Part shown: one piece after another, positions 3,159-34,005 of the stretch | Layout: each line of letters opens with the position of its first letter | Position numbering within the stretch: the stretch's first letter is position 1 | Virus record (IMG/VR): IMGVR_UViG_2563366802_000014 | From: a virus | Lineage: Duplodnaviria; Heunggongvirae; Uroviricota; Caudoviricetes | Direction: 5' to 3' (one strand) | Length of the DNA stretch: 39,173 nucleotides | The notes under the pieces: model-generated | The model's input: only the letters and a program-made list of their open reading frames with translations | The model's database searches: none | Told to the model about the DNA's origin: nothing | Program-made: the position numbers and the translations under genes

Positions 3159-5621
3159 TCAATTCCCTGTTAATTGCAAAACTTGCTCTTCCAGCTTTTT
3201 AACCCTGCGTCTCATCATCGCAGATTCCAGAATCAGAGCCTCTTCATAACGGATACCGTAACATTCACCAGCCTCGACGGCTTCGCGTACCAGAACCTTT
3301 GTCTGTATAAGTGGGTAAACTCCTGCAGAATGCTCTTCTTCCGTCACATCCCTGTATTCTGCCGGGGTCTCATTCCACTTGTCATAACAGATAAATGCCA
3401 GTCGTGACACATCTATGCCTTCATTCTGAAATACACTGATAACATGCTGCGCAACTGCACCAAAGTGCCATCTTGCTCCGTCTTTACCTTTCACTTCGAT
3501 CCTGTCAAGGTACTGGTATGAAACCCATTCCACTCTTTCCCATGCGTCCAGTATTTTCTCATCAATAACCTCTGGAGCAGTCTTGAAACGCGCATCGGAC
3601 AGCACCGTAAACGCTGACTGGGTAAATCCCCCCGACCATGCACGACCAGCCAACCCAAGAGAATAAGTATTCGTTGTCGATGGTGTCATGGCTGAATCAG
3701 AAAACTGTATATATTCTGAATTTCCAGTAGATATTCGAATATTTCCATTTATTAGCGACATAGTGCCTTTAGTATTATCACTATTGAATAATTTCAATTG
3801 CGAACTTATACCGCCTCCCACAGCCAGAGATACATCGCCTTCAGCAAGCATTCTGAATTTATCTGCAGAAACAAGCGTCTGGTTAGCAAGGTTAAAATAT
3901 TTAACCCACCATTCAAAACGCCCTGACATAGTCCCAACGTACTGACCAAGCGCAGGGACGTGAACAACATTGCTATTTGTAGTGCCGTCTATACTGGAAA
4001 TACCAGTCACCGCTGATGCAGAACTCAGAATATTATTTCTGTCACCCGGATGTTTAATTTCAACAAAGTTCCTGATACACCCTTCCTCGAAGGTAACCAC
4101 GCCGGAAGAACTATACATGGGGAATATTGACGCATAATTACTGCGTGCAGCATCTAAGAAACGAATGGTTGTAGATGTCTGCAGATCTCCTGATTCATTT
4201 TTCCCATCACACCCAGTCATTAGAATATTACTGGCAATATTATTATTTCCCTGAACGGTGACGCCGTGCGCCTGCTTTGCGTCCGATTCAGAGTAATCAA
4301 CCAGCACATCCGAAATCAGGTTACCAGTCCCCTTGCCAACAACTACTGCGGCGTATTTTGGGTTGTTAGCCATTACACTGCTAATGATATTATTCGTTGG
4401 GGCAGTTTCCGTCTCAGTTCCATTGTAAACAACGTGCTGACACTCTTCACCAATAACATTGCTGACAATGTTATATTTTGCTGCTGTTTTAAGTTCCACT
4501 GCACCAAACTGAGGATAATTTCTGGCTATCACACCATCAATTAGCGTATTTTGCGATGAATCAAAAAGCACACAACCTGCTTTTTTATTATTTGCGAACC
4601 CTAAATACTCTCCTCTTATATCTCTAACAATGTAACCTGACGGAATACCATTATTCGGATAAGCGATCAAGCTAAATCCTGTTCCTCGCGTATTTGTAAA
4701 TCTGATATTTTTAACCGATACATCATGGCCACCTGAAAATGACACCTGGTGTCCCTGCACACTATCATCTGATTTATTTCCCATAATTGTTAGCGTACTA
4801 AGCATGCCACCATCGGGCATGTTAAAAACCAGATGATTACCATCTCTGTCATACTGTTTTATCGTTCCCCCACCTGTTCCGTACAAGCCACAACGTGAAA
4901 GAGAAACTAAAGATGTATTGAATACCCCTTCCGGAACAAAAACACTGCTAAACGAATGTAATGATTTTGTAAAAGCATCCTTGTTATCATTTAAGATTCC
5001 ATTTTGAGCTCCAAAATCCTTAATGCTGACACCATCACGCATCTTATCCTGGAACGTTCTGTATACCGCTCCAGAACCATACTGAATAAACCAACCAAAA
5101 CCACCAATAACTCCGGCGATTGCAGCATCGACATAATTACGCATTGAGCGATTATTTACAGCGTCCTGCTCAAGTGATGGATCGGCAAGGTTAGATATTC
5201 TGTTTTGCTTTGCATCGTAATATTTTGCAAGCAAAGATGGTTTCATCAATGCACGTCTGAACCACCCAAAACATCGCTGGATCAGCATCGTCAGGTAGTC
5301 AAATGCATCCTCATGAACTTCGGGGAAAAATTTTCCCTGATTGCGAAGATCAGTCTCCTGCACCACATCAAGCACACGCTCTATCGTGATTCGCCAGCCA
5401 GCAGCAAGCGGCGACGGAAGAACCACTGCACCGCCACTATAAGTTCCCGCCCCTGTTACCGTATAACCAGCATCCAGCACTAGTTTTGTAACGTTACCGT
5501 TAAGGTCAGACACCTGAACAACCAGGTCGGATTTTTTGAAAATACGGAAGGTATACGGAAATGATGTCGTAACGCCGTTACCTGTGTATTCGTTGTGGTC
5601 AACTTCGGTTGAGACCGTCAT
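3159..5621 (-). CDS. Tailspike / tail fiber, probable polysaccharide depolymerase with C-terminal S74-type intramolecular chaperone domain
   Basis: 820 aa; N-terminal particle-binding-like segment; central Gly/Asn-rich repeats suggestive of beta-helix; C-terminal motif LSDARFKTAPE matching the S-D-x-R-x-K autoproteolytic chaperone signature; RBS GGAG upstream. Confidence 0.75.
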   Translation of the reverse strand: MTVSTEVDHNEYTGNGVTTSFPYTFRIFKKSDLVVQVSDLNGNVTKLVLDAGYTVTGAGTYSGGAVVLPSPLAAGWRITIERVLDVVQETDLRNQGKFFPEVHEDAFDYLTMLIQRCFGWFRRALMKPSLLAKYYDAKQNRISNLADPSLEQDAVNNRSMRNYVDAAIAGVIGGFGWFIQYGSGAVYRTFQDKMRDGVSIKDFGAQNGILNDNKDAFTKSLHSFSSVFVPEGVFNTSLVSLSRCGLYGTGGGTIKQYDRDGNHLVFNMPDGGMLSTLTIMGNKSDDSVQGHQVSFSGGHDVSVKNIRFTNTRGTGFSLIAYPNNGIPSGYIVRDIRGEYLGFANNKKAGCVLFDSSQNTLIDGVIARNYPQFGAVELKTAAKYNIVSNVIGEECQHVVYNGTETETAPTNNIISSVMANNPKYAAVVVGKGTGNLISDVLVDYSESDAKQAHGVTVQGNNNIASNILMTGCDGKNESGDLQTSTTIRFLDAARSNYASIFPMYSSSGVVTFEEGCIRNFVEIKHPGDRNNILSSASAVTGISSIDGTTNSNVVHVPALGQYVGTMSGRFEWWVKYFNLANQTLVSADKFRMLAEGDVSLAVGGGISSQLKLFNSDNTKGTMSLINGNIRISTGNSEYIQFSDSAMTPSTTNTYSLGLAGRAWSGGFTQSAFTVLSDARFKTAPEVIDEKILDAWERVEWVSYQYLDRIEVKGKDGARWHFGAVAQHVISVFQNEGIDVSRLAFICYDKWNETPAEYRDVTEEEHSAGVYPLIQTKVLVREAVEAGECYGIRYEEALILESAMMRRRVKKLEEQVLQLTGN

Positions 5622-5725
5622 GTTAAATCTCCAGATAGTCGCAGCACCCGTTGCGCCGCATATCTGGTTATTCTATTACCCAAAAAACCATATATGGATA
5701 GAAAGACTGTGAATATGAATAGATA

Positions 5726-5740
5726 TTACCTTTCAGGTAA
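5726..5740. promoter_or_regulatory. Operator-like palindrome TTACCtttcaGGTAA
   Basis: Perfect TTACC-N5-GGTAA inverted repeat about 40 bp upstream of the LexA box. Confidence 0.6.
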
Positions 5741-5777
5741 TTTTCAAAACGTGCTGGATAGCAAACAAATTATTTGC

Positions 5778-5797
5778 TACTGTATAAATATACAGTT
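5778..5797. promoter_or_regulatory. LexA (SOS) box TACTGTATAAATATACAGTT
   Basis: CTGT-N8-ACAG core at 5780-5795 with AT-rich spacer, close match to the enterobacterial LexA consensus, about 20 bp upstream of the 5818 start codon. Confidence 0.8.
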
Positions 5798-5817
5798 ATT
5801 GCATGGAGAAGATTAAG

Positions 5818-6075
5818 ATGCAGCAGTATCACTATCCACTGGAAGAGGGATTTACCGAAAGGATTCACACGCCGGGAGGCGTCAGGTCACTGGTGGAGGG
5901 ATCGCACTTGATGAAATTACTCCGGGATCTCGATAAGGATGGATTTAATGTCGATGGCCCACTTGCCGAACTGACTGCACTGATTAACTACGTCACCAGC
6001 TCACAGATGTCTATGCGGGATCTGCAAACACATCTCGACTATTGTGCCGAACAATTACGAAAACAAACCAGATAA
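5818..6075 (+). CDS. Small antirepressor-domain protein, SOS-controlled candidate antirepressor
   Basis: 85 aa from ATG 5818 (RBS GGAG 9 nt upstream; alternative start 5803); clearly similar to the C-terminal part of the adjacent 231-aa Bro-N protein (shared pattern LLxxL..DG..V.G..AELT ... RD.QTH..Y); preceded by LexA box. Confidence 0.6.
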   Translation: MQQYHYPLEEGFTERIHTPGGVRSLVEGSHLMKLLRDLDKDGFNVDGPLAELTALINYVTSSQMSMRDLQTHLDYCAEQLRKQTR

Positions 6076-6106
6076 GGTTTGTAATTACCAAGTGGAGTGC
6101 TTATAT

Positions 6107-6121
6107 TTACCTTTGCGGTAA
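6107..6121. promoter_or_regulatory. Operator-like palindrome TTACCtttgcGGTAA
   Basis: Perfect copy of the motif, lying in the loop between 7-bp inverted repeats GGAGTGC / GCACTCC. Confidence 0.55.
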
Positions 6122-6212
6122 ATTTACATCGCACTCCTCTTGTGCCATAGTAATCGGGCACTGGCAAAATCCAGTGCCGGGATTGGCGTCCCGGATTACT
6201 AAAAGGCGCATT

Positions 6213-6233
6213 CACCGCGCAAGCGGTTTTTTT
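6213..6233 (+). terminator. Rho-independent terminator after the small antirepressor-domain gene
   Basis: CCGC-GCAA-GCGG hairpin followed by seven T; preceded by a compact multi-hairpin element at 6150-6199. Confidence 0.5.
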
Positions 6234-6390
6234 ATGCGTATAGCACGGCCACATTCGTATTATGGTGGGCTGTGTGGGGGCACCGAAAGGTGCGCCGGGT
6301 CCTTTTAGCCGGTTACGCCAACCCTGCACAGTTCACCACCAACCGATTGGCGTCGGTAGTGGTGATTAACCAGACTAAAAGGTAACCACT

Positions 6391-7086
6391 ATGACAGCTA
6401 CAAAAAGCACGTCCATTTTTTCTTTCGAATCTCAAGCCGATATACGGGTAATCGTCATTAATGGTGAGCCATGGTTTATCGCTTCAGATGTTTGTCGGGC
6501 TATAGGCATAGCAAACCATCGAGATGCTGTTCGAAAACTTGATGATGATGAGAAGGGCGTCGCTTCAACCGACACCCCTGGCGGTGAGCAAGAATCGATC
6601 ATTATCTCCGAGTCAGGCCTCTACACACTGATCCTCCGCTGCCGCGATGCGGTGACACCAGGCACTATCCCCTACCGCTTTCGCAAATGGGTTACAGGTG
6701 AGGTTCTTCCTCAGATCCGCCGCACCGGAAGTTACATTAAAAACTCGCTCCCGCAGGAAGAACGCATAAAGATGGTTGCCGACCAGGTAGCCAACGCCAC
6801 GGCGTCAGCAGTAATGCAGGCGATGAAGATAGAGAACAAAACCTACAGCGCCCCGCTGAAGCCCGGCTACCGCAGCCTGATTCACTCGCCGTCTGGTGTT
6901 CTCGGCCTGACGGAAAACTCACTGCTGATGAATCTGCTGAACCAGTTACAGGAAGACGGGCACGACGTATCGGGCGCGGCGGCGGAGCTGACCACCATGT
7001 TTTGCTACATCGTTGGTGTGAGCAAGTGCCTGCGTGATATCCAGACGCACGCGGAGTACATCAACGACAAGGCTGGGTTCTTCTGA
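6391..7086 (+). CDS. Antirepressor, Bro-N domain protein
   Basis: N-terminal segment FSFESQADIRVIVINGEPWFIASDVCRAIG matches the Bro-N / antirepressor domain; C-terminal domain paralogous to the 85-aa protein. Confidence 0.75.
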   Translation: MTATKSTSIFSFESQADIRVIVINGEPWFIASDVCRAIGIANHRDAVRKLDDDEKGVASTDTPGGEQESIIISESGLYTLILRCRDAVTPGTIPYRFRKWVTGEVLPQIRRTGSYIKNSLPQEERIKMVADQVANATASAVMQAMKIENKTYSAPLKPGYRSLIHSPSGVLGLTENSLLMNLLNQLQEDGHDVSGAAAELTTMFCYIVGVSKCLRDIQTHAEYINDKAGFF

Positions 7087-7153
7087 CGGGCGGCGGCACA
7101 GGGACGTGCCTTTAAAATAATCATTGGCGATGTGATGTAGATTCGCGTAATAT

Positions 7154-7168
7154 TACCTTACGGGTAAA
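7154..7168. promoter_or_regulatory. Operator-like palindrome TTACCttacgGGTAA
   Basis: Perfect copy about 20 bp upstream of a -10-like TATATT and the RBS GAGGTG of the 7206 gene. Confidence 0.6.
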
Positions 7169-7205
7169 CCCCGTTTAATGGCGTTTCTATATTATGAGGT
7201 GATGT

Positions 7206-7841
7206 ATGCCACAACAACTGCTGAATCCGGCAAAGGTTACTGAAGTTTTCGCTCATCTGAACGAAACTCCAGACAACCGCGCCCTGTATTCAGAGTTAGT
7301 GAACGGCAACGATGTCACATCTGATGTCAAAGGCGTTTCTCTGGCTCCTGGATACCGCGTTGTCCGTGTAGACGATCGTAAGAAAGGCGAGATTCCACAG
7401 GCGCACTTCGAACTGGCATTGATAAATGACCTCACCGAAGAGGTAGTGTATTACAATCGTGTCATTATCCAACCTGACAGCTATCTTAACTGCCGACCTG
7501 TCACGCAGATATTGGTATGGAGAACCCAGAAGCCTAAGCATCGTGCTGTGCTTCATGATTTCGCCGGCATCATCTTCATGAACTACCTCTTGGAACGGTA
7601 CGATATCATCGTGTCAGATCGCAACCAGACTCATGAAGGCATGTCGTTCTGGCAGGCTCGCATGTATGACGCACTGGAACTTGGCCTCCACCTCTATGGT
7701 TACGACATGATGACATGCGAGCTGATAGAGATGAATAACGAGGAAGAGCTTGAGAAAGGTGAAACCTGGTTGTGGGGTGATGCGGAAAACTTCCAAAACA
7801 GATTGGCCATAATTTCAAAGCATAAGCTGCCAATAAAATAG
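7206..7841 (+). CDS. Hypothetical protein (211 aa), accessory gene with own operator and terminator
   Basis: ORF from track; strong RBS GAGGTG; acidic soluble protein with no motif I recognise. Confidence 0.6.
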   Translation: MPQQLLNPAKVTEVFAHLNETPDNRALYSELVNGNDVTSDVKGVSLAPGYRVVRVDDRKKGEIPQAHFELALINDLTEEVVYYNRVIIQPDSYLNCRPVTQILVWRTQKPKHRAVLHDFAGIIFMNYLLERYDIIVSDRNQTHEGMSFWQARMYDALELGLHLYGYDMMTCELIEMNNEEELEKGETWLWGDAENFQNRLAIISKHKLPIK

Positions 7842-7847
7842 TTCTTT

Positions 7848-7872
7848 AAGCCCGCGCCGCGGGCTTTTTTGT
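7848..7872 (+). terminator. Rho-independent terminator
   Basis: GC-rich hairpin GCCCGCG..CGCGGGC followed by six T, just after the stop codon of the 7206..7841 gene. Confidence 0.7.
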
Positions 7873-7908
7873 GTCTGCGGATTCCCGCCCTGGCGGCGGT
7901 GGCATTCG

Positions 7909-8435: not shown

Positions 8436-10910
8436 TTATTGCGGAGTGACATCCTGAGGTCGCCACCAGTATGTCTGGTTAAACTCTTTCTTCGAACGTT
8501 GCTCCATTTTACGCAAATAGCCTGGTGAAAAATACTCCTGCATCTGGTTAAAGATCATGTGATCAAGAGCTGCCTTCAAGTACCAGAGATTCGCACCTGG
8601 CATCAGCCCTTTCCCAAGTTTCACCAGATCACCACCAGTCTGCTCGTTCTTCCCTTCCACAGCATTTAATGGTATGCCCTGAGCTATCTTCACTACGTCA
8701 TCAATCAGGCCAGCTACCGGGCCAAGCATCGACGCCAGCGCGCCGCTTCCGTACCTAGTGTGATCTGACAATAAAAAGTCACCGTAAAGGCCAAGACCAC
8801 CACCTTTCAGTAGAGCACCAAGCCAAAATTTAGCAGCATCTTCTCCTGTCATCTCGCGAGGATTACGACCAGACGCAAGGTCGTTAAGTTGCTGCGACAA
8901 AGCGCCAAGAATGGTCGTACTGGCAATAAACGTCGCAATATATGCCGCACGCCCACCAGCAGACGGCATACCCATAGCGCGTGACCAGTGACGCATAACC
9001 ACCGAGATAGGGAACGATTTAAACAGGAAAACACTTCTCGTTAATTCACCTTTCCATGTTCCACGCTGAATACCAGAACCGGTTATCAGTTGCTCACGTG
9101 CTCCCGGTGTAATAACAGCCATATCAACTTCTTCAGTTACGGCACCGAGCAGTTTACGCATTGCCTCAAATTTCACGCGTTCAGGCTCACCAAGATGTTT
9201 AACTGCTGAATCAGGGATACGCATAATGCTTTCCGGTGTCAGCATCGTATTATTACCGTTCCCCCAGTCCTCCTGTTGCGCCAGCTTCCATACGCTCCAG
9301 TCTGTGTCAGTAATCCCTTTGCTTTTCAGGATACGAAAATCAGAGTCATCGAGGCTACGAAGGTCTGGTGTCCGTGACACTACTTCTCCCAGGCTTCCCA
9401 TCATGGTTACGCCATAGGCGCGCTTGTGCGCATCTGACCATGCTGTAAGCCCACTGGCACGCATTACCGCCGTTGCTGCCCAACGAGACACTGACGGCCC
9501 CATATTATCCATCGCCCAGCGGTTAACGCTGCCAAGTAGAGATTCCATTGCCAGACCAGCGCGGCGCGCCCGCGCAAGTTCTGTACGGTTCGTTGGGTCC
9601 ATAGCTTCAAGCTGGTTGCGGAATAACTGGTTCATTGGAAGGTTGGTCACCTTCGCAGACAGATACATGGTTCCAAGATCAGAGAACGATGATAGCAACG
9701 CGGATCCGAGTCTGCTGGCAACCAGCCAGTTGCGGATATTGTCAGACCATCGCGCGATGTGCGGATTCGCTACAGGCTGTGTCTTTCCGGAAATAAAGTT
9801 GTACAGATTCTCTGTGTTGTTCGCCAGCCGCTCGACTTTACCGGTTTTACTCGGGTTAGCTGTTGCCGTTTCTGCCTTAACCTGATCAAGAAGGGAGCGG
9901 AAAACATGATCGGGGTTTGGACCATATGTTTCCACCAGAGCAATATCTTTACTGATACCTTCCAGGTGACCGACCATGATTTCCCATAGAGAGCGATCGC
10001 CATAAAGTTGTTGATATTGGAGATAGGAATCAGCATCTTTGAAATGTATCTGTCGTGATGCATTACCACGGTTAGCACGTGCGCCGGAAATTCGCATTCC
10101 GGTATCAGTAAGCTTATTCAGCCCACCAGTAGCGATCGTGTTATAAGCCTCTCCAAGAAATGCAGACAACTCGGCACCGTTCATCAGTTGTCCATCGGCT
10201 CGGGTATAATATTTGCGATCCAGCTTACCTATAACATCGTTAACCCACTTATCCTTTGATACCGCCCCAACCTTTTCCATAGAATGATGTTGAGGGATCC
10301 CCCAGTTTTCGAGATAGCCAATGTCCCCACCAGCATCATTAAACCGGCGGCGCAGCAGCTCTGTAACTTCTCTCCACGCCTTAGCACCTTTTCTTGCTTT
10401 AGCATTGCCAGTATTTTGCCCCCGCATTTCATATACCAGGTCACGTACGCCCGCTTCATCTTCAAACAGACCAAAAAAGCGAGGATCAACTGCTTCGAAT
10501 GCCTCCTGCAATTGACTCAATGCATAATCACGGGTGGCTTTTGTTCTGGATTCAACAGAGAGGAAATTAGATTTACCGTCTGCATTAAAAGCTATAGTAC
10601 GGTTAAGAGCGCCAAGTTTCCCATCAGCCCCTTGATAGCTATTGATAAATTTATCCAATCTCTGACGCGCGGCTATAGTGAGAGCCACACGACGTTTCTT
10701 TAATGCCGCTTCTCGCTGTAATTCTTCAGATGCCAATTGTGCTGCTCGATATAGCCGCTCTGATTCGGAAAGTTGTCGCCACGACATCGGGTCATCACGA
10801 GCAATGGAGCGCATATTTCGATAAATGCGGTCTTCAATGTTCTGTATTTCTCGCGCCGTTAACATGCGCTGCGCCGCCTGCTGAACCGCCTGTATACATT
10901 CCTGTCTCAT
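8436..10910 (-). CDS. Large internal virion / ejection protein (824 aa)
   Basis: Large ORF in the run of virion genes between the tail-tube-like genes and the tailspike; role inferred from size and position only. Confidence 0.55.
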   Translation of the reverse strand: MRQECIQAVQQAAQRMLTAREIQNIEDRIYRNMRSIARDDPMSWRQLSESERLYRAAQLASEELQREAALKKRRVALTIAARQRLDKFINSYQGADGKLGALNRTIAFNADGKSNFLSVESRTKATRDYALSQLQEAFEAVDPRFFGLFEDEAGVRDLVYEMRGQNTGNAKARKGAKAWREVTELLRRRFNDAGGDIGYLENWGIPQHHSMEKVGAVSKDKWVNDVIGKLDRKYYTRADGQLMNGAELSAFLGEAYNTIATGGLNKLTDTGMRISGARANRGNASRQIHFKDADSYLQYQQLYGDRSLWEIMVGHLEGISKDIALVETYGPNPDHVFRSLLDQVKAETATANPSKTGKVERLANNTENLYNFISGKTQPVANPHIARWSDNIRNWLVASRLGSALLSSFSDLGTMYLSAKVTNLPMNQLFRNQLEAMDPTNRTELARARRAGLAMESLLGSVNRWAMDNMGPSVSRWAATAVMRASGLTAWSDAHKRAYGVTMMGSLGEVVSRTPDLRSLDDSDFRILKSKGITDTDWSVWKLAQQEDWGNGNNTMLTPESIMRIPDSAVKHLGEPERVKFEAMRKLLGAVTEEVDMAVITPGAREQLITGSGIQRGTWKGELTRSVFLFKSFPISVVMRHWSRAMGMPSAGGRAAYIATFIASTTILGALSQQLNDLASGRNPREMTGEDAAKFWLGALLKGGGLGLYGDFLLSDHTRYGSGALASMLGPVAGLIDDVVKIAQGIPLNAVEGKNEQTGGDLVKLGKGLMPGANLWYLKAALDHMIFNQMQEYFSPGYLRKMEQRSKKEFNQTYWWRPQDVTPQ

Positions 10911-10915
10911 TTAAT

Positions 10916-12718
10916 TTAACCTCTCAAGAAACACGCCACAGCGACATCAAACAGGCTGGAATCCTGTATTGCCTGCTCACTTTCCCTGTTCGCTTCATCC
11001 AGTACTTCACGCGCACTGCGCGATTGTGGATTACCATCATCATCCAGCACGGTGATTATCATGTCAGGTGATTCAAGCAGCGAGTCTTCAGCTATACGCA
11101 GATCAATATCTCCTGCCGGATCTGCCATCATTTTTTGTTCTGTCTGTTGCAATATCTTACCGGGCTCAAAAGGAGCTACTTCGTCTGGCGTCCTGACCTC
11201 TGCTGTTTTATAGAATGAAACAGCCTGAGCATTAAGTTCACTTTCTGCCTGCTGTCGTCGTGCCAGTTCTGCTCGAGCTTCAAAAAACTGACCGCCAGGC
11301 TCATGCGGTGCCAACGCGTTACGGGAAAATTCCAGGCGCTCTTGTGCCTGCCGGATTCGTTGGTCAATATCGCGAAGTCTGACCTGTTTATCTGATCGAG
11401 CACGAGACAAAGCTTTACCGCTACCGGTTGGCTCTTCTGCAAGAATTTGTGCGCGCTGTTCAGTGAGATTTTCAATAATTCGTTGGCTATTAGCGATTTC
11501 AGACTGGTAAACCTGTCTATCGCCACGCGGCAAAAGCTGCGCGGCCTGTTCTTCAAGCAACCGATTTTCTATAGCGCGCGCCGTTACTCCATCATCTACA
11601 GATGACAGAGCCTCATTAACTGCCTGAGACAGCAGACTCTTGCGCCCAGGAATTTCACTGAAAGATGCAGACTCAACAATGCTGGCAACGTCTACAGGTC
11701 TCCCCTGGCTAACATCAGACATAGCTTTTCGCAGAGCCTGAATGTGAGAATTGCGCGAAAGCACGTTGATCGGCACGCCGGGCGCAATATCAATTTCAGC
11801 ATGATGAGCGGCATTCGCCGCCAGTGCAGCATCAACATCAACTGGTGAAAAATTTGGTGCGCTTGTAGACTCGCCGCGAGAGTTCATAAATCTGCCGACA
11901 CCACCAAACGCCACCCCAAGAACAGCATCAATAGCAATTGCCTGTCGATCCAACACATCATACTGGTTAGCCATTTCGCTATAGCCACCATCACGAAGCG
12001 TTTTTGCAGTAAGCCCACGCTGTGCCATACCGAACGCAATATTTGTACCTGCGGCATAGGCAATATCTGGCGTTGCACGCACTGCTGTTGCTGCGGCGCG
12101 TCGCACTGAACTTTCACCCGTCCGCGCAAGCTGGGCCGCCACACCTTCCGCCAGCGCACCACCAGCACGTAACCCGAGGCTCATAGGGATCAGTGTTCCG
12201 GCACCAGCAGTAATACCCTGCACTAATCCCGCTTCCTGCGCCGTCCTGAAATCAACACCCTGTGCTGTCAGCCGTTCAAACTCAGAAAAACCCTGTAGAG
12301 AAGTTACCGCCGCAGCACCTCCGACCGGACCACCGAGCGTTGTACCGACAACAGCCTGCCCTCCCATATCGAACAACCCATAAAGGACCTGCCCGGCGGT
12401 TCCGGTTGTCGCGGCATCAGGCGTCAGCCGCTTAACCTGCTGCTCTGCTAGTTTTCTCTGCTCAGCAATGTATGAAACTGAAGTGTCATTAAGCGAGGTG
12501 TTTTCGTTAACAAACTGAGCAATCGGGGATACGATTTTATCCATCCCTGCCCATAGCAACTGATCTGGCTTTGCCACCAGCCCGGAGTACAAACCAGACA
12601 ATGCCGCTCCTACAGCATTGTCGAAAAAACCAACATTGCTGTTAAAGCCAGCTGGATTTGATGCTGCTTCGTCAAGCTGCTGATTCTGGCTTACTGGATT
12701 AAGGCCAAAGTAACTCAT
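10916..12718 (-). CDS. Internal virion / ejection protein (600 aa)
   Basis: Gly/Ala-rich large ORF translationally coupled to its neighbours; role inferred from position. Confidence 0.5.
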   Translation of the reverse strand: MSYFGLNPVSQNQQLDEAASNPAGFNSNVGFFDNAVGAALSGLYSGLVAKPDQLLWAGMDKIVSPIAQFVNENTSLNDTSVSYIAEQRKLAEQQVKRLTPDAATTGTAGQVLYGLFDMGGQAVVGTTLGGPVGGAAAVTSLQGFSEFERLTAQGVDFRTAQEAGLVQGITAGAGTLIPMSLGLRAGGALAEGVAAQLARTGESSVRRAAATAVRATPDIAYAAGTNIAFGMAQRGLTAKTLRDGGYSEMANQYDVLDRQAIAIDAVLGVAFGGVGRFMNSRGESTSAPNFSPVDVDAALAANAAHHAEIDIAPGVPINVLSRNSHIQALRKAMSDVSQGRPVDVASIVESASFSEIPGRKSLLSQAVNEALSSVDDGVTARAIENRLLEEQAAQLLPRGDRQVYQSEIANSQRIIENLTEQRAQILAEEPTGSGKALSRARSDKQVRLRDIDQRIRQAQERLEFSRNALAPHEPGGQFFEARAELARRQQAESELNAQAVSFYKTAEVRTPDEVAPFEPGKILQQTEQKMMADPAGDIDLRIAEDSLLESPDMIITVLDDDGNPQSRSAREVLDEANRESEQAIQDSSLFDVAVACFLRG

Positions 12719-19693: not shown

Positions 19694-20038
19694 TTACACG
19701 CCCAGTTCTTTACGCTTATCTGCGATCTTCTCGCGGAGCGTTTCGGCTTTGGCGTTATGGTGTGGCTTCTCGTTAAAGAGCAATTCGTACTCTTCACGGA
19801 GCTTATCCAGTTCACCATCATCTGACACATCGTTGATGATTTTGGTGCTGGTTGCTGCCATTGACACCTTTCCTGCAACTTTTGCTTTTGCCTGTCTGGC
19901 TGCATCGTTCACAGGTTCCAGTGCGCTACCAGGCTCACCTTCGTATTCGATTTCTGCCCCCTCCGGCCACAGAGTGTTATGGATATGAGAGAGGCGCAGA
20001 ACGCGGTATCTTGGTTTCTCACCTGACATCGATATCAC
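19694..20038 (-). CDS. Hypothetical head-module protein (114 aa)
   Basis: ORF from track within the head gene run; followed by a hairpin at 19661-19676. Confidence 0.5.
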   Translation of the reverse strand: MISMSGEKPRYRVLRLSHIHNTLWPEGAEIEYEGEPGSALEPVNDAARQAKAKVAGKVSMAATSTKIINDVSDDGELDKLREEYELLFNEKPHHNAKAETLREKIADKRKELGV

Positions 20039-24421: not shown

Positions 24422-24511
24422 ATCAATGACTCCGTACGCAATTAAATTATTACCAATTTAACCACATATGATTTATTTATCGTAGGTAGTTGACATTTAA
24501 CGCACGAATTA

Positions 24512-24526
24512 TTACCTTTAAGGTAA
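24512..24526. promoter_or_regulatory. Operator-like palindrome TTACCtttaaGGTAA next to a TTGACA -35-like hexamer
   Basis: Perfect copy; TTGACA at 24490-24495 on the plus strand. Confidence 0.55.
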
Positions 24527-24848: not shown

Positions 24849-24925
24849 GTGGCATTAGCTCAGTCGGACAGAGCAACCGCCTTCTAAGCGGTTGGTCGCA
24901 GGTTCGAATCCTGCATGCCACGCCA
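24849..24925 (+). tRNA. tRNA-Arg (anticodon UCU)
   Basis: Hand-folded cloverleaf: 7-bp acceptor stem GTGGCAT/ATGCCAC, D-arm GCTC..GAGC, anticodon stem ACCGC/GCGGT with loop CTTCTAA (anticodon TCT), T-arm GCAGG-TTCGAAT-CCTGC, discriminator G and encoded CCA. Confidence 0.85.
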
Positions 24926-27046: not shown

Positions 27047-27639
27047 TGATTGCCATCCTGACGTTCTTTCAGTCTCTTCCTGGCTGCCGCTATGCGATCA
27101 GCAATTGTCACATTCACATTAACATCCAGGCGTTCTTTGAATGCGTTGACGTCGACGTGCTTACCAATCAGTTCGAGGTTCTTCACCTTGTCAGGCCATT
27201 TAATTTTTTTGAGGATTGTCTCTATCGAATCCTCGTTCATGTTCATGATGGTCGATGACAGATCAAAGCCGCTAAGCGTAGTGCGCCAGATTTTCGGCCA
27301 CTCTCGGATTGGCTTAAGGCTCCCATCGTCGTTGAGGATGTCGATCACGTCCATCTGGTCGATCTCCACCAGACGCATGAGAACGTAATCAGCACTGACG
27401 CGCATTCGTTTGTTGCGCTCCTCCATCAGCTCGGCAATCCGTTTTTGAATGCGTTCATCGCGCATCATGACACTGGCTTTAACTGCTGCTGTATTTGGGG
27501 AGAATCCTGCGTTAATCGCTGCCTGAGTCTGGTTTTCAGGCGTTTTGATGTATGACTGGCAATAAGCCTCCTGCATTGCTGTTAGTGGCTTAAATTGCGT
27601 TGATTTGCGTTTATAGGTTTTAGGTTCAGCAGGCATCAT
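27043..27639 (-). CDS. Terminase small subunit
   Basis: Resembles small terminase proteins and is translationally coupled to the large subunit; start reassigned to ATG 27639 (MMPAEPKTYKRK) rather than the track start 27717. Confidence 0.75.
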   Translation of the reverse strand: MMPAEPKTYKRKSTQFKPLTAMQEAYCQSYIKTPENQTQAAINAGFSPNTAAVKASVMMRDERIQKRIAELMEERNKRMRVSADYVLMRLVEIDQMDVIDILNDDGSLKPIREWPKIWRTTLSGFDLSSTIMNMNEDSIETILKKIKWPDKVKNLELIGKHVDVNAFKERLDVNVNVTIADRIAAARKRLKERQDGNQ

Positions 27640-27671
27640 AACCACCGTGGTAATAGTTACCGTTGTGGTAA
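27639..27671. promoter_or_regulatory. Two adjacent operator-like sites at the terminase small subunit start
   Basis: TaACCaccgtGGTAA (27639-27653, one mismatch) and perfect TTACCgttgtGGTAA (27657-27671), overlapping the start codon and 5' leader. Confidence 0.55.
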
Positions 27672-27749: not shown

Positions 27750-27761
27750 GTGACATGTCAC
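27750..27761. repeat. 12-bp perfect palindrome GTGACATGTCAC (copy 3 of 3)
   Basis: Overlaps the TGA stop codon of the 113-aa gene, about 40 nt upstream of the terminator. Confidence 0.8.
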
Positions 27762-28099
27762 ACTATTAATTTCGTTTCATGCCAGCCTTTAGTCACCCAG
27801 CATTGCGAGTCACCATTACACGGGCATGAATTCACAGGAACTCTCTCGCCGCACTTACCGCAACGTTTTCTGCTGATCGATTTTATACGCCCGCGCACGC
27901 GTGCATCATCCTGGCGGATCAGTAACGCTATATACTCACCAAATTCGTAAGGCGCACGCCCGGGGCGACGCGTGGCACAGTTACGCTCCAGCATTTCAAT
28001 TTCCTGAGCATCAAGCACAATCTCCAGCTTACGTACACCGGATTCAGCTTGTCTGGCTCTCTGAGCGGCTTTGCGCTCTGCTGCTGATTTAGCCATCAA
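27758..28099 (-). CDS. Small basic protein with C-terminal Cys-rich zinc-ribbon-like motif (113 aa), candidate late-gene regulator
   Basis: ORF from track; C-terminus CGKCG...CPCNGDSQC; last gene before the terminator and packaging genes; role is speculative. Confidence 0.45.
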   Translation of the reverse strand: MMAKSAAERKAAQRARQAESGVRKLEIVLDAQEIEMLERNCATRRPGRAPYEFGEYIALLIRQDDARVRGRIKSISRKRCGKCGERVPVNSCPCNGDSQCWVTKGWHETKLIV

Positions 28100-29118: not shown

Positions 29119-29331
29119 CTATTTCACCTTAATCTCAACATTTCGCAGCTTTAGCTCTACTGGCAAGTCTGACTTTCCTGTTAATGCTAATGCGAGATTT
29201 TCAGGAGTAATGAGAGCAGTTATTGTTTTCCCCATCGCCAGACGAATAATCATTCGTATCTCGCGATCGTCACATGCTCCCGGTCGAACAATTGATATTT
29301 GTCCGTTCATCTCACTCTCCTTTGATGCCAA
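29119..29331 (-). CDS. Hypothetical protein (70 aa)
   Basis: ORF from track, overlapping its upstream neighbour by 20 nt. Confidence 0.4.
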   Translation of the reverse strand: MASKESEMNGQISIVRPGACDDREIRMIIRLAMGKTITALITPENLALALTGKSDLPVELKLRNVEIKVK

Positions 29332-29977: not shown

Positions 29978-30414
29978 TGGTTGCCTCCTTTGCGAAGCTG
30001 TTCAGCAATACTTACGCATATCTCTGCGCCTCTAATCAGCCCCGGAACGTTCTTGTTTGGCCCAACTTCACCATCGACAAAATCAATCATCGCGTTACGA
30101 GCCATATCCACACCCTGCGCCCGCACTTCAGCAAGGGAGGCGTCGGTGGCTGGGGTTTCTGGCATACAGTCAGCAGCGTCGAAATACTCTTCACTTTTGT
30201 CATCCCAAATCCAGCAATCATCTTTGATGAACTTGTTCAGCCCCGCATTCTCCGCTGCCAGCGCATTAGCACGCACCAGTTGCACTTCCAGTTGCGTTGC
30301 CAAATCGCTGATCAGCTTTGCCACACTGCGCATATCAACGGCACCACATTCTGCTTTCAGTTCCGAAGCCATCTCATGCCCGGCGGCAACTAACCCTTTG
30401 ATATTACTTTCCAT
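29974..30414 (-). CDS. Hypothetical early protein (146 aa)
   Basis: ORF from track, translationally coupled to its downstream neighbour. Confidence 0.45.
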   Translation of the reverse strand: MESNIKGLVAAGHEMASELKAECGAVDMRSVAKLISDLATQLEVQLVRANALAAENAGLNKFIKDDCWIWDDKSEEYFDAADCMPETPATDASLAEVRAQGVDMARNAMIDFVDGEVGPNKNVPGLIRGAEICVSIAEQLRKGGNQ

Positions 30415-30475
30415 CTTTACCCTCGCTTATCCACATAACTTATTGATTACACTGATAACTAAAAAGATCGTCGAT

Positions 30476-30820
30476 TCAGAACTCTTCGATGTTCCAGCCA
30501 CCACCTGCTTTCTTTGGTTTAACCGTTACCCCGATGATTCGGAACGGATACTGATCTGCGGCGACTTTGGTTTTCACCCTGGCGTCGTCGGTCCAGAAAC
30601 CTTTCACTTCGTGCAGTTCCATCTCGCCGGTGGCGAGCATCACAGCAAAATCGGGCGTATAGAACGTGTTGTCAGCTAACCGTAGCTTGATACCCTCGAA
30701 TCGATACCAGGCGATTTCCCCTGCACGTTTACGAAGCTCAAGGTGCTGGCAATACGCAGATTCTGTTTTGTTCATCTGGCCTGTTTTGAGTCGACCAAGA
30801 GCCTGTATCTGTTTTCTCAT
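30476..30820 (-). CDS. Small PD-(D/E)XK-like nuclease-fold protein (114 aa), possible junction-resolving or replication-associated nuclease
   Basis: Motif TPDF...GEMELHEVKG consistent with a D...E.K nuclease core; own promoter region flanked by two operator sites. Confidence 0.45.
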   Translation of the reverse strand: MRKQIQALGRLKTGQMNKTESAYCQHLELRKRAGEIAWYRFEGIKLRLADNTFYTPDFAVMLATGEMELHEVKGFWTDDARVKTKVAADQYPFRIIGVTVKPKKAGGGWNIEEF

Positions 30821-30823
30821 GAT

Positions 30824-30900
30824 TTACCCCTGAGGTAATTAAAAACCACATAAGACACGAAATCAATAGATCTTAGAACATTTTATTACCTAGCAGGTAA
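30824..30900. promoter_or_regulatory. Promoter region flanked by two perfect operator-like sites
   Basis: TTACCcctgaGGTAA (30824-30838) overlapping the RBS of the 30820 gene and TTACCtagcaGGTAA (30886-30900); minus-strand TTGATT, 17 bp, TTTAAT promoter-like hexamers between them. Confidence 0.55.
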
Positions 30901-30937
30901 TTATCAAGACGTAAAAAAATGCGCTATCGCGCTGGTA

Positions 30938-31738
30938 TTACTTGATAAATCCTGCCGCCTTTCCCCGCCTGTATTCCTCCATCAGCCACTGCGCCGGTGT
31001 TATTCCCCCCAGGGTAGCGGCGTTAGGCATACACCCGAAACTTCGCCCTGGTGGATGGTAAACGTCTCTCCCTGTGTCCGGAGGCGTACTCATGGGTTCT
31101 GGCTTTGCCTGTATGCTGATCACCGGATCGGGTATCTGCTGTCCGGAAGCCACCTTTTTCGCCCAATCATCGAGCAGCCTGCGCGCGTGTTTCTCAACCT
31201 CAATCTCGCTAAGCTGGCGCTGATACATTGCACGGCGGGTATCACATACGACCCAGTACATAACCGGATGTCGCCACGGGAATCTTTCGGGACCACCAGG
31301 ATATAAACTTTTTTCCTTGCTGTACCGGTGAAACTCCGCCATCACATCGTCAATGGTGACGCCAAGAACCATCTTGCTGTCTTTACACCACTTGATGAAT
31401 TGCCCTGGCGACGGCCAGAACGGAGACTCACTGGCGCGGGCGTGGCGCATACCAGCAGAAACCTGTTCACGGGTTCGGATCCCCCCTTCGGCAAACGCAG
31501 CAATCCACTGCTGTTTTGCAGCGACTTCCTGCTCTGGCGTCTTCAGGTTGGTTACCACTGCCGCCGGAAACAGTTGTTTCAGCTGTTTGAAAAGGGCATC
31601 AACAAGCCTCTCTGCTGACATGTTCACCACGTTGTCATTGTTGGTGTACTGATGCTCATAACCTGACATGCGAGAAAGGGCTTCTCCGTCACGGTTTTGT
31701 ATCGCGGTAAAAACGTTGTTCACAAGAAATCCTCCCAT
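30938..31738 (-). CDS. Replication protein P-like (helicase loader)
   Basis: Segment LFPAAVVTNLKTPEQEVAAKQQWIAAFAEGGIRTREQVSAGMRHARASESPFWPSPGQFIKWC aligns by eye with phage lambda P. Confidence 0.75.
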   Translation of the reverse strand: MGGFLVNNVFTAIQNRDGEALSRMSGYEHQYTNNDNVVNMSAERLVDALFKQLKQLFPAAVVTNLKTPEQEVAAKQQWIAAFAEGGIRTREQVSAGMRHARASESPFWPSPGQFIKWCKDSKMVLGVTIDDVMAEFHRYSKEKSLYPGGPERFPWRHPVMYWVVCDTRRAMYQRQLSEIEVEKHARRLLDDWAKKVASGQQIPDPVISIQAKPEPMSTPPDTGRDVYHPPGRSFGCMPNAATLGGITPAQWLMEEYRRGKAAGFIK

Positions 31739-32535
31739 GCTTCAGGGCTGTTCCAGTGCGGAACGTTGTTATCAGGTAATGTTGATTGCTTCTGTCTGCT
31801 AATCTGCAGCCGCCTTGCCAGCTTCTGCTCCCACTGTGCCTGATGGTATGCCTTACCCTCAGCCATCCAGTAAATTCTGAACTCTGCAAGTTCCTGTGCC
31901 GTTGGCAGACTGTCCAGGTAGATCCCCTGCAATGAGCTTTTCCGAAGAAAGTCATCTGATGGCTGCCATTGTTCATGCATGACAAATTTGCCTAATTGCC
32001 CTGGCCCACCAGGAGGAACAAAGTTATTCATCACGGCGTTGTTTGCGCCGGGGTCATGAGGCACAGAATCCCCGCTTTTTGTCCTGCTCTCCCTCTCTTG
32101 GTTAAATGACTGGTTATATGACTGGTTCTGGATCCCGTTTTTGGGATCATTCAACATCCCGTTTTTGGGATCATTCAACATCCCGTTTTTGGGTATATTC
32201 CCGTTTTCGGTAACATTACCGTTTTCGGGTTCATAACCCCCTTCCCGGTTGCCTTTAATGTTCCCGTTTTTGGTTATATTAAGAGAGAAAACCCGCACTC
32301 TTTTCGTCGCTCCCTTTCTCTCTCCGGTATCTGAAATAAGCCCCATTTTCATGAGCGATATAAGCCCGGCCTGCACGGTTTTTTTATTCAGGCAAGTGTC
32401 TTTAACGAGGCGTTCTATGCTGGGGTAGCAGAGGTTATATTCATCGGCTCTGTCAGCCATCGAGAGCAGTATGAGCTTTAATGACGAGCTACCTGGATCT
32501 GTCTCCCAGGCCCAATCTGTTGCATGTCTGCTCAT
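31720..32535 (-). CDS. Replication initiator, O-like, with embedded origin iterons
   Basis: Position between Cro-like and P-like genes; internal direct DNA repeats encoding PKNGMLNDPKNG; N-terminal DNA-binding-like region. Confidence 0.65.
   Translation of the reverse strand: MSRHATDWAWETDPGSSSLKLILLSMADRADEYNLCYPSIERLVKDTCLNKKTVQAGLISLMKMGLISDTGERKGATKRVRVFSLNITKNGNIKGNREGGYEPENGNVTENGNIPKNGMLNDPKNGMLNDPKNGIQNQSYNQSFNQERESRTKSGDSVPHDPGANNAVMNNFVPPGGPGQLGKFVMHEQWQPSDDFLRKSSLQGIYLDSLPTAQELAEFRIYWMAEGKAYHQAQWEQKLARRLQISRQKQSTLPDNNVPHWNSPEAWEDFL
32095..32290. repeat. Origin-like iteron array inside the O-like gene
   Basis: Tandem repeats ATCCCGTTTTTGGGATCATTCAAC (two to three full copies), further CCCGTTTT(C/T)GG variants, and TGACTGGTT duplicated upstream. 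Confidence 0.7.
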
Positions 32536-32550
32536 GATTAATCTCCGCTA

Positions 32551-32751
32551 TCAGCTTGAATGTTGTGGGGAGGAATTAATCATGATCTGCTTAATCTCTG
32601 CCCTGATACGACGGTTTGATTCCATGGTGCACTCAACACAGTGTCCGTTGTAAACCCAGCGTTCACTGTCATGTCCGTGCTTACATGTTTTTCCGGTGTA
32701 GTAGCGTTTAAGTCCGCGCTTTGCGGCATCAATACGTGTAATGATTTCCAT
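32551..32751 (-). CDS. Small Cys/His-rich protein (66 aa), possible zinc-binding regulator
   Basis: Start reassigned to ATG 32751 (MEIITRID); motif CKHGHDSERWVYNGHCVEC; sits where cII-like genes occur in lambdoid maps. Confidence 0.45.
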   Translation of the reverse strand: MEIITRIDAAKRGLKRYYTGKTCKHGHDSERWVYNGHCVECTMESNRRIRAEIKQIMINSSPQHSS

Positions 32752-32831
32752 GGTAAGCCCTGTTATTAGTATTGGGATTACGGTCATTTTGTGCTGACAC
32801 AAAAAAAAGATCAACCAGATTTGGTTTTTTA

Positions 32832-32846
32832 TTACCTTTGAGGTAC
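32832..32846. promoter_or_regulatory. Operator-like site TTACCtttgaGGTAc downstream of the Cro-like gene
   Basis: One mismatch to the motif; adjacent hairpin AGACCGCC..GGCGGTCT. Confidence 0.4.
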
Positions 32847-32901
32847 GAATAGATATGAAAAGACCGCCGGATGGCGGTCTACAGAGGGTTGTAGCTGGAT
32901 A

Positions 32902-33132
32902 TCATGAGTAGAAGAAGTATGCCAGTTCTGCTTTTGAGCGCAGCCATTGTCTTGTTTTACAGGCTTTAAAAAGCCCATTCATCAATACTTTACCTGGCAT
33001 TTTGCGCTTACCTGTTAAGTGAGTCTGGATATAGTGACTCGTCGTTCCGGCTTCCTGTGCGAAGGCTTCACGCTCATCCGGAGTAAGTGCAAGCCAGTGC
33101 TTTTTGAAATCGAAATGTCCGTTATCGCTCAT
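32902..33132 (-). CDS. Cro-like small HTH regulator
   Basis: 76 aa, divergent from the repressor gene across an operator-bearing intergenic region; HTH-like segment AFAQEAGTTSHYIQTHLTGKRK. Confidence 0.55.
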   Translation of the reverse strand: MSDNGHFDFKKHWLALTPDEREAFAQEAGTTSHYIQTHLTGKRKMPGKVLMNGLFKACKTRQWLRSKAELAYFFYS

Positions 33133-33168
33133 AGCTATTGCCTGATATTTATTTCAGATAATAAATAT

Positions 33169-33231
33169 TCACCCATAAGGTAACAAAAATCAAGGATAGT
33201 TACCTATGAGGTGCATTTACCTGTTGGGTAA
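33169..33231. promoter_or_regulatory. Divergent promoter region with three operator-like sites (OR-like)
   Basis: TcACCcataaGGTAA (33169-33183), TTACCtatgaGGTgc (33200-33214) and perfect TTACCtgttgGGTAA (33217-33231) between the Cro-like and repressor genes. Confidence 0.65.
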
Positions 33232-33286
33232 TATTGCTTTAAATTGAATCATCTACTGATTCATATATGAGGCGATTTTTCAGAAA

Positions 33287-33871
33287 ATGAAAAGTATCCA
33301 GGACGTCCGCAGGCAAAATCTCAACGACTTGATCGACCGTGAATTCAATGGTGTTCAGACGCGGATGGCAGAAAAACTTGGAACTCAGGCAAATCTGGTA
33401 AACCGCTGGGCTCTTGGCAAGAAGGTTATCGGCGACCAGGTTGCGCGAAAAATTGAAGCTGCCGCCAATAAACCCCGTAACTGGCTTGATATCGATCGCT
33501 CGCTTTCTCAGGAAGGTTTTCAGCCTGTCGGCCCAAGCGATATTGGTCAGCTGGCAGCTCACAACCTGGAACGCTGGATGAGTGAAAGCCGCGACCTTTC
33601 AACTCAGGGAAAACTTCACCGCGCATCCGGCGTCGCCCAGGTGACAATAAGCCGCCTGTTAAACAATGAGGTCAGCGTTTCCATTTCCACCCTGGAGAAT
33701 GTTGCATCTGCATTCGGGCGTCACGGATATGAACTACTGATTCATCCGCATGACCCTGCAACTATCAACTATGACCGCTCGCGCTACGCATTGTTACCTG
33801 AAACAGAGAAGGCAAAGATCGAAAGTTACATTGAATTTGTCATCAACCAGAACGAAAAAAACAAACAATAA
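33287..33871 (+). CDS. Prophage repressor candidate, tandem-HTH protein without recognisable autocleavage domain
   Basis: N-terminal HTH (QTRMAEKLGTQANLVNRWALGKK) and a second HTH-like segment (ASGVAQVTISRLLNNEVSVSISTLENVASAFG); no Ala-Gly / Ser-Lys peptidase signature seen; divergent from Cro-like gene. Confidence 0.6.
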   Translation: MKSIQDVRRQNLNDLIDREFNGVQTRMAEKLGTQANLVNRWALGKKVIGDQVARKIEAAANKPRNWLDIDRSLSQEGFQPVGPSDIGQLAAHNLERWMSESRDLSTQGKLHRASGVAQVTISRLLNNEVSVSISTLENVASAFGRHGYELLIHPHDPATINYDRSRYALLPETEKAKIESYIEFVINQNEKNKQ

Positions 33872-33891
33872 AATCATATTTTTCAGTAAGT

Positions 33892-33916
33892 AAGCCGCCT
33901 TCTGGCGGCTTTTTTA
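33892..33916 (+). terminator. Rho-independent terminator after the repressor gene
   Basis: Stem AAGCCGCC / GGCGGCTT with loop TTCT followed by a T-run. Confidence 0.7.
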
Positions 33917-33928
33917 TTGCCTATTTGA

Positions 33929-34005
33929 TTACCTAACGGGTAATTTTTTTAACTCATATCTATTGACATCAAACCAGATACGCATAATTATTACCTCAAC
34001 GGTAA
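33929..34005 (+). promoter_or_regulatory. Early-left promoter (PL-like) flanked by two perfect operator-like sites
   Basis: TTACCtaacgGGTAA (33929-33943), TTGACA at 33963-33968, AT-rich -10 region around 33983-33991, TTACCtcaacGGTAA (33991-34005). Confidence 0.6.

Follow-up and report, generated by a model that had tools for sequence, protein, structure and literature searches.

A dispersed TTACC-N5-GGTAA palindrome as the putative operator of the repressor Rep in a phiV10/epsilon15-like prophage

The DNA analysed here (IMG/VR virus record IMGVR_UViG_2563366802_000014, 39,173 nucleotides; "the window" denotes this whole stretch) is 96-98% identical to the Escherichia phages phiv142-3 and phiV10 of the genus Uetakevirus, and is a phiV10/epsilon15-like prophage of that genus. 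Its gene order is that of epsilon15 and phiV10. The lysis genes and the tailspike gene lie on the minus strand and are followed by a small plus-strand island (5803-7841). A long minus-strand series runs from a cro-like gene (32902-33132) through the replication, accessory, terminase, and virion genes, and the plus strand carries the repressor gene rep (33287-33871) and then a rightward early operon that includes recE and recT. A hyphenated palindrome, ATTACC-N5-GGTAAT in its extended form, recurs between these genes. It is very probably the operator of the main repressor, Rep, which would silence separate transcription units directly. Palindromes of this kind are already on record for Uetakevirus through epsilon15, and the present analysis is a confirmation, not a discovery.

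The palindrome in the window and in related phages

A motif scan of the window finds ten perfect copies of TTACC-N5-GGTAA, at positions 5726, 6107, 7153, 24512, 27657, 30824, 30886, 33217, 33929, and 33991. A preliminary description of this DNA had listed the same ten, all as intergenic, and only its coordinate 7154 has to be corrected to 7153. Its statement that the motif lies far above chance is borne out as well: dinucleotide-preserving shuffles of the window contain a mean of 0.02 perfect copies, with a maximum of one. TTACC is the sole half-site of a 5-N5-5 palindrome with more than two occurrences in the window. TTACC and GGTAA are paired there at the five-base spacer only, every other spacer from 0 to 11 bases yielding no match. 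The extended consensus adds an A at -1 and a T at +16. Being a perfect hyphenated palindrome, the operator is without orientation. Intergenic DNA represents 7.5% of the window and wholly holds all ten perfect copies, together with four of the five one-mismatch copies.

Copies with one mismatch are located at 5494, 27639, 32832, and 33169, and a copy with two mismatches at 33200; these are the near-copies first described, with 5495 shifted to 5494. Chance alone would give the window about one match with a single mismatch. The copy at 5494, within the tailspike coding region, was considered as an operator and rejected: because it is not conserved (at least three mismatches in the relatives) and about one such match is expected, it is treated as a chance occurrence. 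Four of the five one-mismatch copies, as well as the copy at 33200, appear to be conserved operators. This brings the predicted set to ~14 operators at eight control regions spread across 28 kb.

In unrelated phages, the same scan returned no perfect copy in lambda and none in Pseudomonas phage PseuP_224. The lone match in P22 sits among replication-origin iterons and was discarded as unrelated to the operator set. An equal frequency of the motif in unrelated DNA, which according to the preliminary description would speak against an operator network, was not observed in the ~130 kb sampled from these three phages.

The window was compared with seven complete relatives (phiv142-3, phiV10, Tyrion, BUCT554, Klebsiella phage BUCT711, epsilon15, and SPC32H), giving eight genomes in all; the hosts of the relatives are E. 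coli, Salmonella, Enterobacter, and Klebsiella. Each of the seven harbors 8-11 perfect copies at syntenic positions. Pairwise identity over eight orthologous sites in five lineages is 51% in the spacers, 52.5% in the flanks (positions 3-11), and 100% in the half-sites, the last value being partly built in because perfect sites were chosen. The real evidence lies in the persistence of a perfect site at each orthologous place while its surroundings drifted.

In GenBank, the epsilon15 record (AY150271.2) includes seven features labelled 'protein_bind, repressor, lysogeny', with the 17-bp sequence ATTACC-N5-GGTAAT. They are found before terS (12-27), before gp3 (2931-2947), in the gap between gp19 and the tailspike gene (the tailspike/ant site, 19895-19911), at the early promoter beside the repressor gene (three sites), and before a resolvase-type gene, and they occupy the same places as the sites of the window. 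Seven of the eleven perfect sites of epsilon15 are annotated in this way; the sites that separate rep from the cro-like gene are all left unmarked. Since this record marks the same sites as repressor-binding, the finding is rated as already known. A literature search on Uetakevirus repressor binding sites returned nothing relevant.

These comparisons bear on the idea that the copies are non-functional repeats, whether they arose by chance, descend from duplicated promoter modules, or represent a packaging or structural signal. Two modules with operators 62 bp apart (see below) are alike and could be duplicates, and two copies lie at the start of terS, where a pac site might be near. However, the half-sites are invariant over four host genera, with spacers and flanks about half identical, and the copies are distributed over eight separate control regions, all in intergenic DNA. 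The operator is also kept before different cargo genes, and a hairpin with a 5-bp stem and a loop of five bases is too weak to be relevant. Non-functional repeats are therefore a very improbable explanation.

Operators and the transcription units they adjoin

The position of the sites relative to the genes is as the preliminary description had it at all the loci that it described: three sites between rep and the cro-like gene (33169, 33200, and 33217), two flanking the -35 and -10 of the early promoter (33929 and 33991), two flanking the promoter of a small nuclease gene (30824 and 30886), two at the start of terS (27639 and 27657), one before the tRNA cassette (24512), and one ahead of each of the three plus-strand genes at 5803-7841 (5726, 6107, and 7153).

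Between rep and the cro-like gene, operator OR1 (TCACCCATAAGGTAA, one mismatch, 33169..33183) lies in the spacer and -35 of a leftward early promoter detected by promoter scan (TTGTTA-17-TATTAT, 33186-33158, minus strand). Its orthologue in phiv142-3, BUCT554, epsilon15, and SPC32H likewise has one mismatch and keeps TCACC as its left half. OR2 (TTACCTATGAGGTGC, 33200..33214) has two mismatches; because the orthologous position is a perfect site in epsilon15, SPC32H, and BUCT711, it is regarded as a real but weakened operator. OR3 (33217..33231) is perfect, and its left half serves as the -35 of a putative promoter for rep (TTTACC-18-TAAATT, 33216-33245, plus strand), an arrangement that suggests negative autoregulation of rep.

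Downstream of rep, the rightward early promoter (TTGACA-17-AATTAT, scoring 10/12, 33963..33991, plus strand) drives the genes from 34025 onwards, including recE and recT. It is bracketed by a distal operator (33929..33943), 19 bases upstream of its -35, and a proximal operator (33991..34005) that lies 62 bp from the distal one and whose first T is the last base of the -10. The promoter of a DUF1064/Holliday-junction-resolvase-like gene (30476-30820, minus strand), with its -35 TTGATT at 30861-30866 on the minus strand, is bracketed in the same plan and register. Its perfect distal operator (30886..30900) and its proximal operator (30824..30838), three bases before the ATG, are likewise 62 bp apart. 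An alternative promoter around operator 30886 (TTGATA-16-TAAAAT) is not conserved in phiv142-3, and the promoter between the two operators was preferred. The spacing is 62 bp in 15 of the 16 cases provided by two loci in eight genomes (8/8 for the DUF1064 pair and 7/8 for the early-promoter pair), the exception being 63 bp at the rightward early promoter of BUCT711. The sequence between the paired operators has diverged among the genomes. As 62 bp amounts to about six helical turns, both sites of a pair face the same side of the helix; this spacing suggests that one Rep tetramer may bridge them.

Two further loci associate operators with terminators. Upstream of terS, a perfect operator (27657..27671) is located 19 bases downstream of a predicted intrinsic terminator (27708-27691, minus strand), and a second operator with one mismatch (27639..27653) abuts the terS start codon (27636, minus strand). 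The one-mismatch operator at 32832..32846 stands just downstream of the predicted intrinsic terminator that follows the cro-like gene (32880-32861, minus strand); its orthologue is a one-mismatch copy in phiv142-3, phiV10, Tyrion, and BUCT711, and is degenerate in BUCT554. The terS pair and the 32832 site may block read-through or cover activator-dependent promoters. In the first case they would be roadblocks to terminator read-through, comparable to stoperators, and not promoter operators. Their location directly downstream of intrinsic terminators in a long same-strand series is what a roadblock would require, no promoter of 9/12 or better is detected nearby, and cluster A mycobacteriophages are an established case of a repressor blocking elongation at numerous dispersed sites (PMC9283540). 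Stoperators, however, are asymmetric and oriented with transcription, whereas the sites of the window are palindromic, and an activator-dependent late promoter could have escaped detection at these places. A roadblock role is possible for these three sites, though less likely than not.

The operator at 24512..24526 separates the minus-strand gp3-like/portal late operon from the plus-strand tRNA-Arg island. It overlaps the -10 (TACCTT) of a plus-strand promoter with a perfect -35 (TTGACA, 24490-24495), which is present in all eight genomes (as TTGACC in BUCT711). This promoter faces the tRNA-Arg (UCU) gene (24849..24925, plus strand), 337 bases downstream of the operator.

On the minus strand, when the regions preceding the gp3-like/portal operon and the tailspike gene are aligned, a candidate late-promoter element emerges, consisting of CATATRTGGTT, five bases, and a -10-like hexamer. 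It reads CATATGTGGTT-N5-GGTAATAATTT before the gp3-like/portal operon (24444..24470, minus strand) and CATATATGGTT-N5-GGTAATAGAAT before the tailspike gene (5670..5696, minus strand). Its core is a palindrome, CCATATATGG, ~27 bases upstream of the likely start, and is not accompanied by a -35. Exact copies of CATATRTGGTT in the window are those at 5686-5696 and 24460-24470 (minus strand). In relatives, the element is also found upstream of the lysis cassette (phiV10 ~24738, Tyrion ~26454, epsilon15 ~24750), with a TATAAT hexamer in the phiV10 lysis copy. When two mismatches are allowed, CATATRTGGTT gives 25 matches against 18.7 expected and is not enriched, which leaves only the exact or positionally conserved copies as meaningful. 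Weaker copies of the element are seen at 33972 and 30844, each in the spacer of a bracketed early promoter, and at 32813, past the cro terminator. The element is a candidate site of a late activator. Candidate regulators encoded by the phage that might fill this role are a PerC-like gene (36786-37085), a winged-helix gene (34476-34682), and the gene 27758-28099.

The plus-strand island begins opposite the tailspike gene. In this divergent region, an operator (5726..5740) lies 14 bases upstream of the candidate -35 of ant (TGGATA, 5755-5760). A CTGT-N8-ACAG element in front of ant (CTGTATAAATATACAG, 5780..5795, plus strand) is, from the known consensus, what we take to be a LexA box; a similar element exists in the other seven genomes, as ATGT-N8-ACAG in BUCT711. 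The ant gene itself (5803..6075, plus strand) encodes a small antirepressor, homologous to SPC32H Ant (E 6e-47 to PDB 5D50_E).

The next operator (6107..6121) is situated between two plus-strand promoter-like sites. The first, TTGTAA-17-TATATT (6079-6107), ends on the first T of the operator, which is the last base of its -10-like hexamer. The second, TTTACA-17-CATAGT (6123-6151), begins two bases past the operator and ends seven bases before the 5' end of an isrK-like small RNA, at which it would start transcription. The isrK-like RNA (6158-6233, plus strand; Rfam RF01394, 77.9 bits) and a C4 antisense RNA (6258-6343, plus strand; Rfam RF01695, 77.7 bits), both above the gathering score, lie in tandem between this Rep operator and the Bro-N gene (6391..7086, plus strand). 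The latter encodes a second antirepressor, a Bro-N domain fused to an Ant-like C-terminal domain (phrog_450 at residues 148-229). Its C-terminal ~80 residues share 44% identity with Ant over 78 residues (E 1e-17). The prophage therefore encodes Ant-type proteins twice: the gene of one follows a LexA box, that of the other a Rep operator and two RNAs. The preliminary description had placed an operator before the antirepressor; one does precede the Bro-N gene, but the Rep-acting antirepressor is the LexA-controlled product of 5803-6075, and the Bro-N gene is a second, fused copy.

A third operator (7153..7167) precedes a cargo gene (7206-7841, plus strand; 211 amino acids, phrog_1349), which thus stands behind its own Rep operator. 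The first T of this operator is the end of a weak promoter (TTGGCG-18-TAATAT, 7124-7153). A search of the cargo gene against Pfam and NCBIfam gave no match. In phiv142-3, the operator is kept at the same junction, before a different small gene.

Other features of the window concern its ends and the replication region. The attP core reported for the Uetakevirus group, ATTGAGTGGGAATGATT, occurs in reverse complement at 1162-1178, placing the left prophage end near 1162. Bases 1 to ~1161 represent flanking DNA with two plus-strand open reading frames (ORFs), one of which displays a weak YiaD-like glycine-zipper match. At the other extremity, the integrase gene is cut by the right end of the window. 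Relatives harbor a conserved one-mismatch operator-like palindrome, GTATTACCTTAAAGGTATAC, ~40-60 bases upstream of their integrase gene (phiV10 26870, epsilon15 26882, SPC32H 26960, Tyrion 28568, phiv142-3 39129), and its equivalent in the window would fall just past the right end. Within the primosomal/replication-initiation gene 31720-32535, a hairpin-like unit of 20 bases, TGGGATCATTCAACATCCCG, occurs twice in tandem at 32142-32185 (plus strand), with identical sequence and with TTTTTGGG after each copy; the two units may be origin iterons.

Rep and the Cro-like protein as readers of the site

Rep (194 residues, 33287..33871, plus strand) is a homologue of SPC32H Rep, which it matches over its full length (E 4e-42 to PDB 5D50_A, residues 1-190 to 2-197), although the window protein is only 42% identical to the Salmonella Rep proteins. 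It shows a YdaS-like match at residues 21-61 and a match to Pfam HTH_3 (HTH_3/XRE-type families) at residues 106-147, which fits its initial description as a tandem helix-turn-helix (HTH) repressor. By analogy with its homologue, its predicted layout comprises an N-terminal DNA-binding domain, a middle HTH-like dimerisation domain, and a C-terminal tetramerisation and Ant-binding region.

SPC32H Rep is described in two papers that summarise the work on it (PMC9638917, PMC9986798) as having an N-terminal DNA-binding domain, a middle domain in which the second HTH-like fold serves for dimerisation, and a C-terminal tetramerisation domain that is also contacted by Ant. According to the same papers, it is a tetramer on palindromic DNA, each palindrome taking one pair of N-terminal domains, and the two members of a pair belong to different dimers. 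The fold of the tetramerisation domain is p53-like, of a type associated with DNA looping, and the two DNA-binding ends of the tetramer are ~100 Å apart. The repression mechanism is described in PMC9986798 as little characterised. The regulator of the palindromes had at first been called dimeric, a view that does not stand, the SPC32H-type Rep being a tetramer.

The segment NLVNRW (residues 36-41, in the N-terminal domain) does not vary among six Reps with 42-78% identity to the window protein. It is a putative recognition-helix segment, and its invariance would fit an unchanged operator. When viral contigs were scanned with the Rep alignment, all 80 loci retrieved encoded a 100% identical Rep, which made the scan useless for operator co-variation. 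Functional data come from phage ZX5, whose repressor has the same sequence as that of phiV10 (PMC9782041) and is 100% identical to the window Rep. Its overexpression abolished free phage and cut the endolysin and holin transcripts by more than 99.9%; the operators were not defined in that paper (PMC9782041).

A tblastn search with the N-terminal 73 residues of Rep retrieved CI-type repressors in unrelated phages, which share with Rep this N-terminal domain and a TACC/GGTA half-site. In PseuP_224, TTACC-N4-GGTAA is present in four copies over the whole genome, only in two clusters flanking cI (10907-11822); an unannotated Cro-like ORF apparently lies at ~11852-12083. Beside the repressors with a related N-terminal domain, CharmingMan harbors TTACC-N4-GGTAA (1409-1463 and 2278-2319), pOW20-A ATACC-N5-GGTAT (1378-1446 and 2285-2326), and H-19B TTACC-N5-GATAA; in CharmingMan and pOW20-A, too, the operators form two clusters, one on each side of the repressor gene. 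In contrast to the Uetakevirus system, the spacer has four bases in two of these phages, and the C-terminal part of their repressors, which aligns only outside the Rep-like domain, is read from its sequence as a LexA-type self-cleaving domain. The TACC/GGTA half-site travels with the immunity cassette, and its genome-wide spread is seen only in the Uetakevirus lineage.

The Cro-like protein (76 residues, 32902..33132, minus strand), encoded by the first gene of the leftward early operon, is the other candidate reader. It belongs to phrog_35, a family annotated as 'transcriptional repressor', and its homologues adjoin Rep-like repressors, with TACC-type operators, in CharmingMan and pOW20-A. 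Classical switches have Cro and the repressor acting at common operators. The Cro-like protein might hence be the main user of the sites, for a lytic shutdown of many units, or might share them with Rep as in lambda. Several observations argue instead for Rep. The epsilon15 record assigns the sites to the repressor, NLVNRW is invariant in the N-terminal domain of Rep while the operator is unchanged, overexpression of the repressor alone silences lytic genes in ZX5 (PMC9782041), and exclusive use by Cro would leave Rep without an operator. Both proteins probably read the site, and an account of the set centred on the Cro-like protein seems rather unlikely.

Rep-mediated silencing and its relation to known systems

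The preferred reading remains that of a Rep operator present across the early, accessory, antirepressor, and late regions. The preliminary description had proposed one phage regulator for all of them, and the epsilon15 annotation, the conservation of the sites, and the homology to SPC32H Rep support this core. Many of the operators overlap or abut promoters: the first base of those at 33991, 6107, and 7153 coincides with the final base of a -10, that at 33169 is in a promoter spacer, and that at 24512 is on a -10.

Rep would act as a tetramer with two pairs of N-terminal HTH domains, one pair per palindrome. In the lysogen, it would occupy ~14 operators at eight control regions and silence each transcription unit directly. 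These would be the leftward early promoter together with rep (three operators), the rightward early promoter, the DUF1064 promoter, the entry to terS, the gp3-like/portal versus tRNA-Arg region, the tailspike versus ant region, the isrK-C4-Bro-N/Ant operon, and the cargo gene 7206-7841. At the 62-bp pairs, one tetramer may grip both operators from the same side of the helix, with the promoter trapped between them. Upon induction, cleavage of LexA would allow the small Ant to be made, Ant would dismantle the Rep tetramers, and all operators would be freed together. The operator before the Bro-N-fused Ant would be freed as well, reinforcing the switch in a feed-forward loop.

A more far-reaching version makes Rep a whole-genome silencer. 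The 62-bp pairs would be bridged, Rep would directly control the Bro-N/Ant fusion behind isrK and C4 to yield a self-reinforcing induction, and operators would guard activator-dependent late promoters, with their CCATATATGG core, against activation in trans. This combination is tentative and, taken as a whole, doubtful. The 62-bp brackets, the control of the second antirepressor by Rep, and the late-promoter element are not annotated and were not found in the accessible literature.

Several observations weigh against direct repression by Rep at every site. The terS and 32832 sites have no convincing sigma-70 promoter, none of at least 9/12 being nearby, which means that promoter occlusion cannot be the mode of action there. 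At the late promoters of the gp3-like/portal operon and of the tailspike gene, the operator centre is ~70-80 bases upstream of the likely start. Direct contact of the regulator with late-gene promoters, as first proposed, holds insofar as the operators adjoin them; because they lie 29-41 bases upstream of the late element, this is a statement of position only, from which repression is deduced. A 62-bp loop is tight, and in our reading of the alignment the window Rep has Ile in place of the second of the two Phe residues reported for the tetramer interface of SPC32H. Furthermore, Rep and the Cro-like protein are not separable by co-occurrence, since both travel together in other phages.

Among known systems, the closest is that of epsilon15 and SPC32H (AY150271.2; PDB 5D50 and 5D4Z). 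It has the same ATTACC-N5-GGTAAT operator at the same syntenic sites (terS, gp3, tailspike/ant, the early promoter by rep, and the resolvase-type gene), homologous Rep and Ant proteins, and a LexA box before ant. The element of the window can be assigned to this Rep operator set by the full-length Rep homology, the operator sequence, the synteny, and the LexA-boxed Ant, all of which it displays. The E. coli lineage differs by the addition of operators before the isrK/C4/Bro-N-Ant module and before the cargo gene. It has no separate lysis-cassette site, because its lysis genes directly follow the tailspike gene.

More distant parallels exist. In P1, the immI operon is transcribed from a C1-controlled promoter and encodes the c4 antisense RNA, icd, and ant, a layout to which that of isrK, C4, and Bro-N-Ant is parallel. 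The C1 repressor of P1 has 22 dispersed operators (PMC8546580) and, like Rep, is one immunity repressor acting on many operons, including a C4 RNA/antirepressor operon. However, the P1 operator is an asymmetric 17-mer, whereas the window site is a palindrome suited, as it seems, to the domain pairs of a tetramer, and P1 is a myovirus with a plasmid prophage. In cluster A mycobacteriophages (L5, Bxb1, TipsytheTRex), stoperators are dispersed in short intergenic gaps, including the structural-gene region (PMC9283540). The window likewise has many putative repressor sites in short intergenic gaps, the structural-gene region included. Stoperators, in contrast, are oriented and number ~20-30; a monomer binds them, and it is elongation that they affect, whereas the ~14 palindromes of the window are mostly at promoters. 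In contrast to lambda-type immunity, the operators of the window are not confined to two clusters flanking the repressor gene.

This analysis provides a map of ~14 putative Rep operators in a common E. coli prophage type. Phages of the phiV10 type have served as O157 reporter phages, and they influence the virulence of avian pathogenic E. coli. Room for novelty is limited to the 62-bp brackets, the second antirepressor behind isrK and C4, and the late-promoter element. The 62-bp pairs and the second Rep-controlled antirepressor furnish concrete hypotheses on how the Rep tetramer, with its unusual structure, may repress; beyond them, the existing annotation is confirmed. For the genus, the picture is that of a Uetakevirus immunity that would be exerted simultaneously at many promoters, instead of by a cascade starting at two operators.

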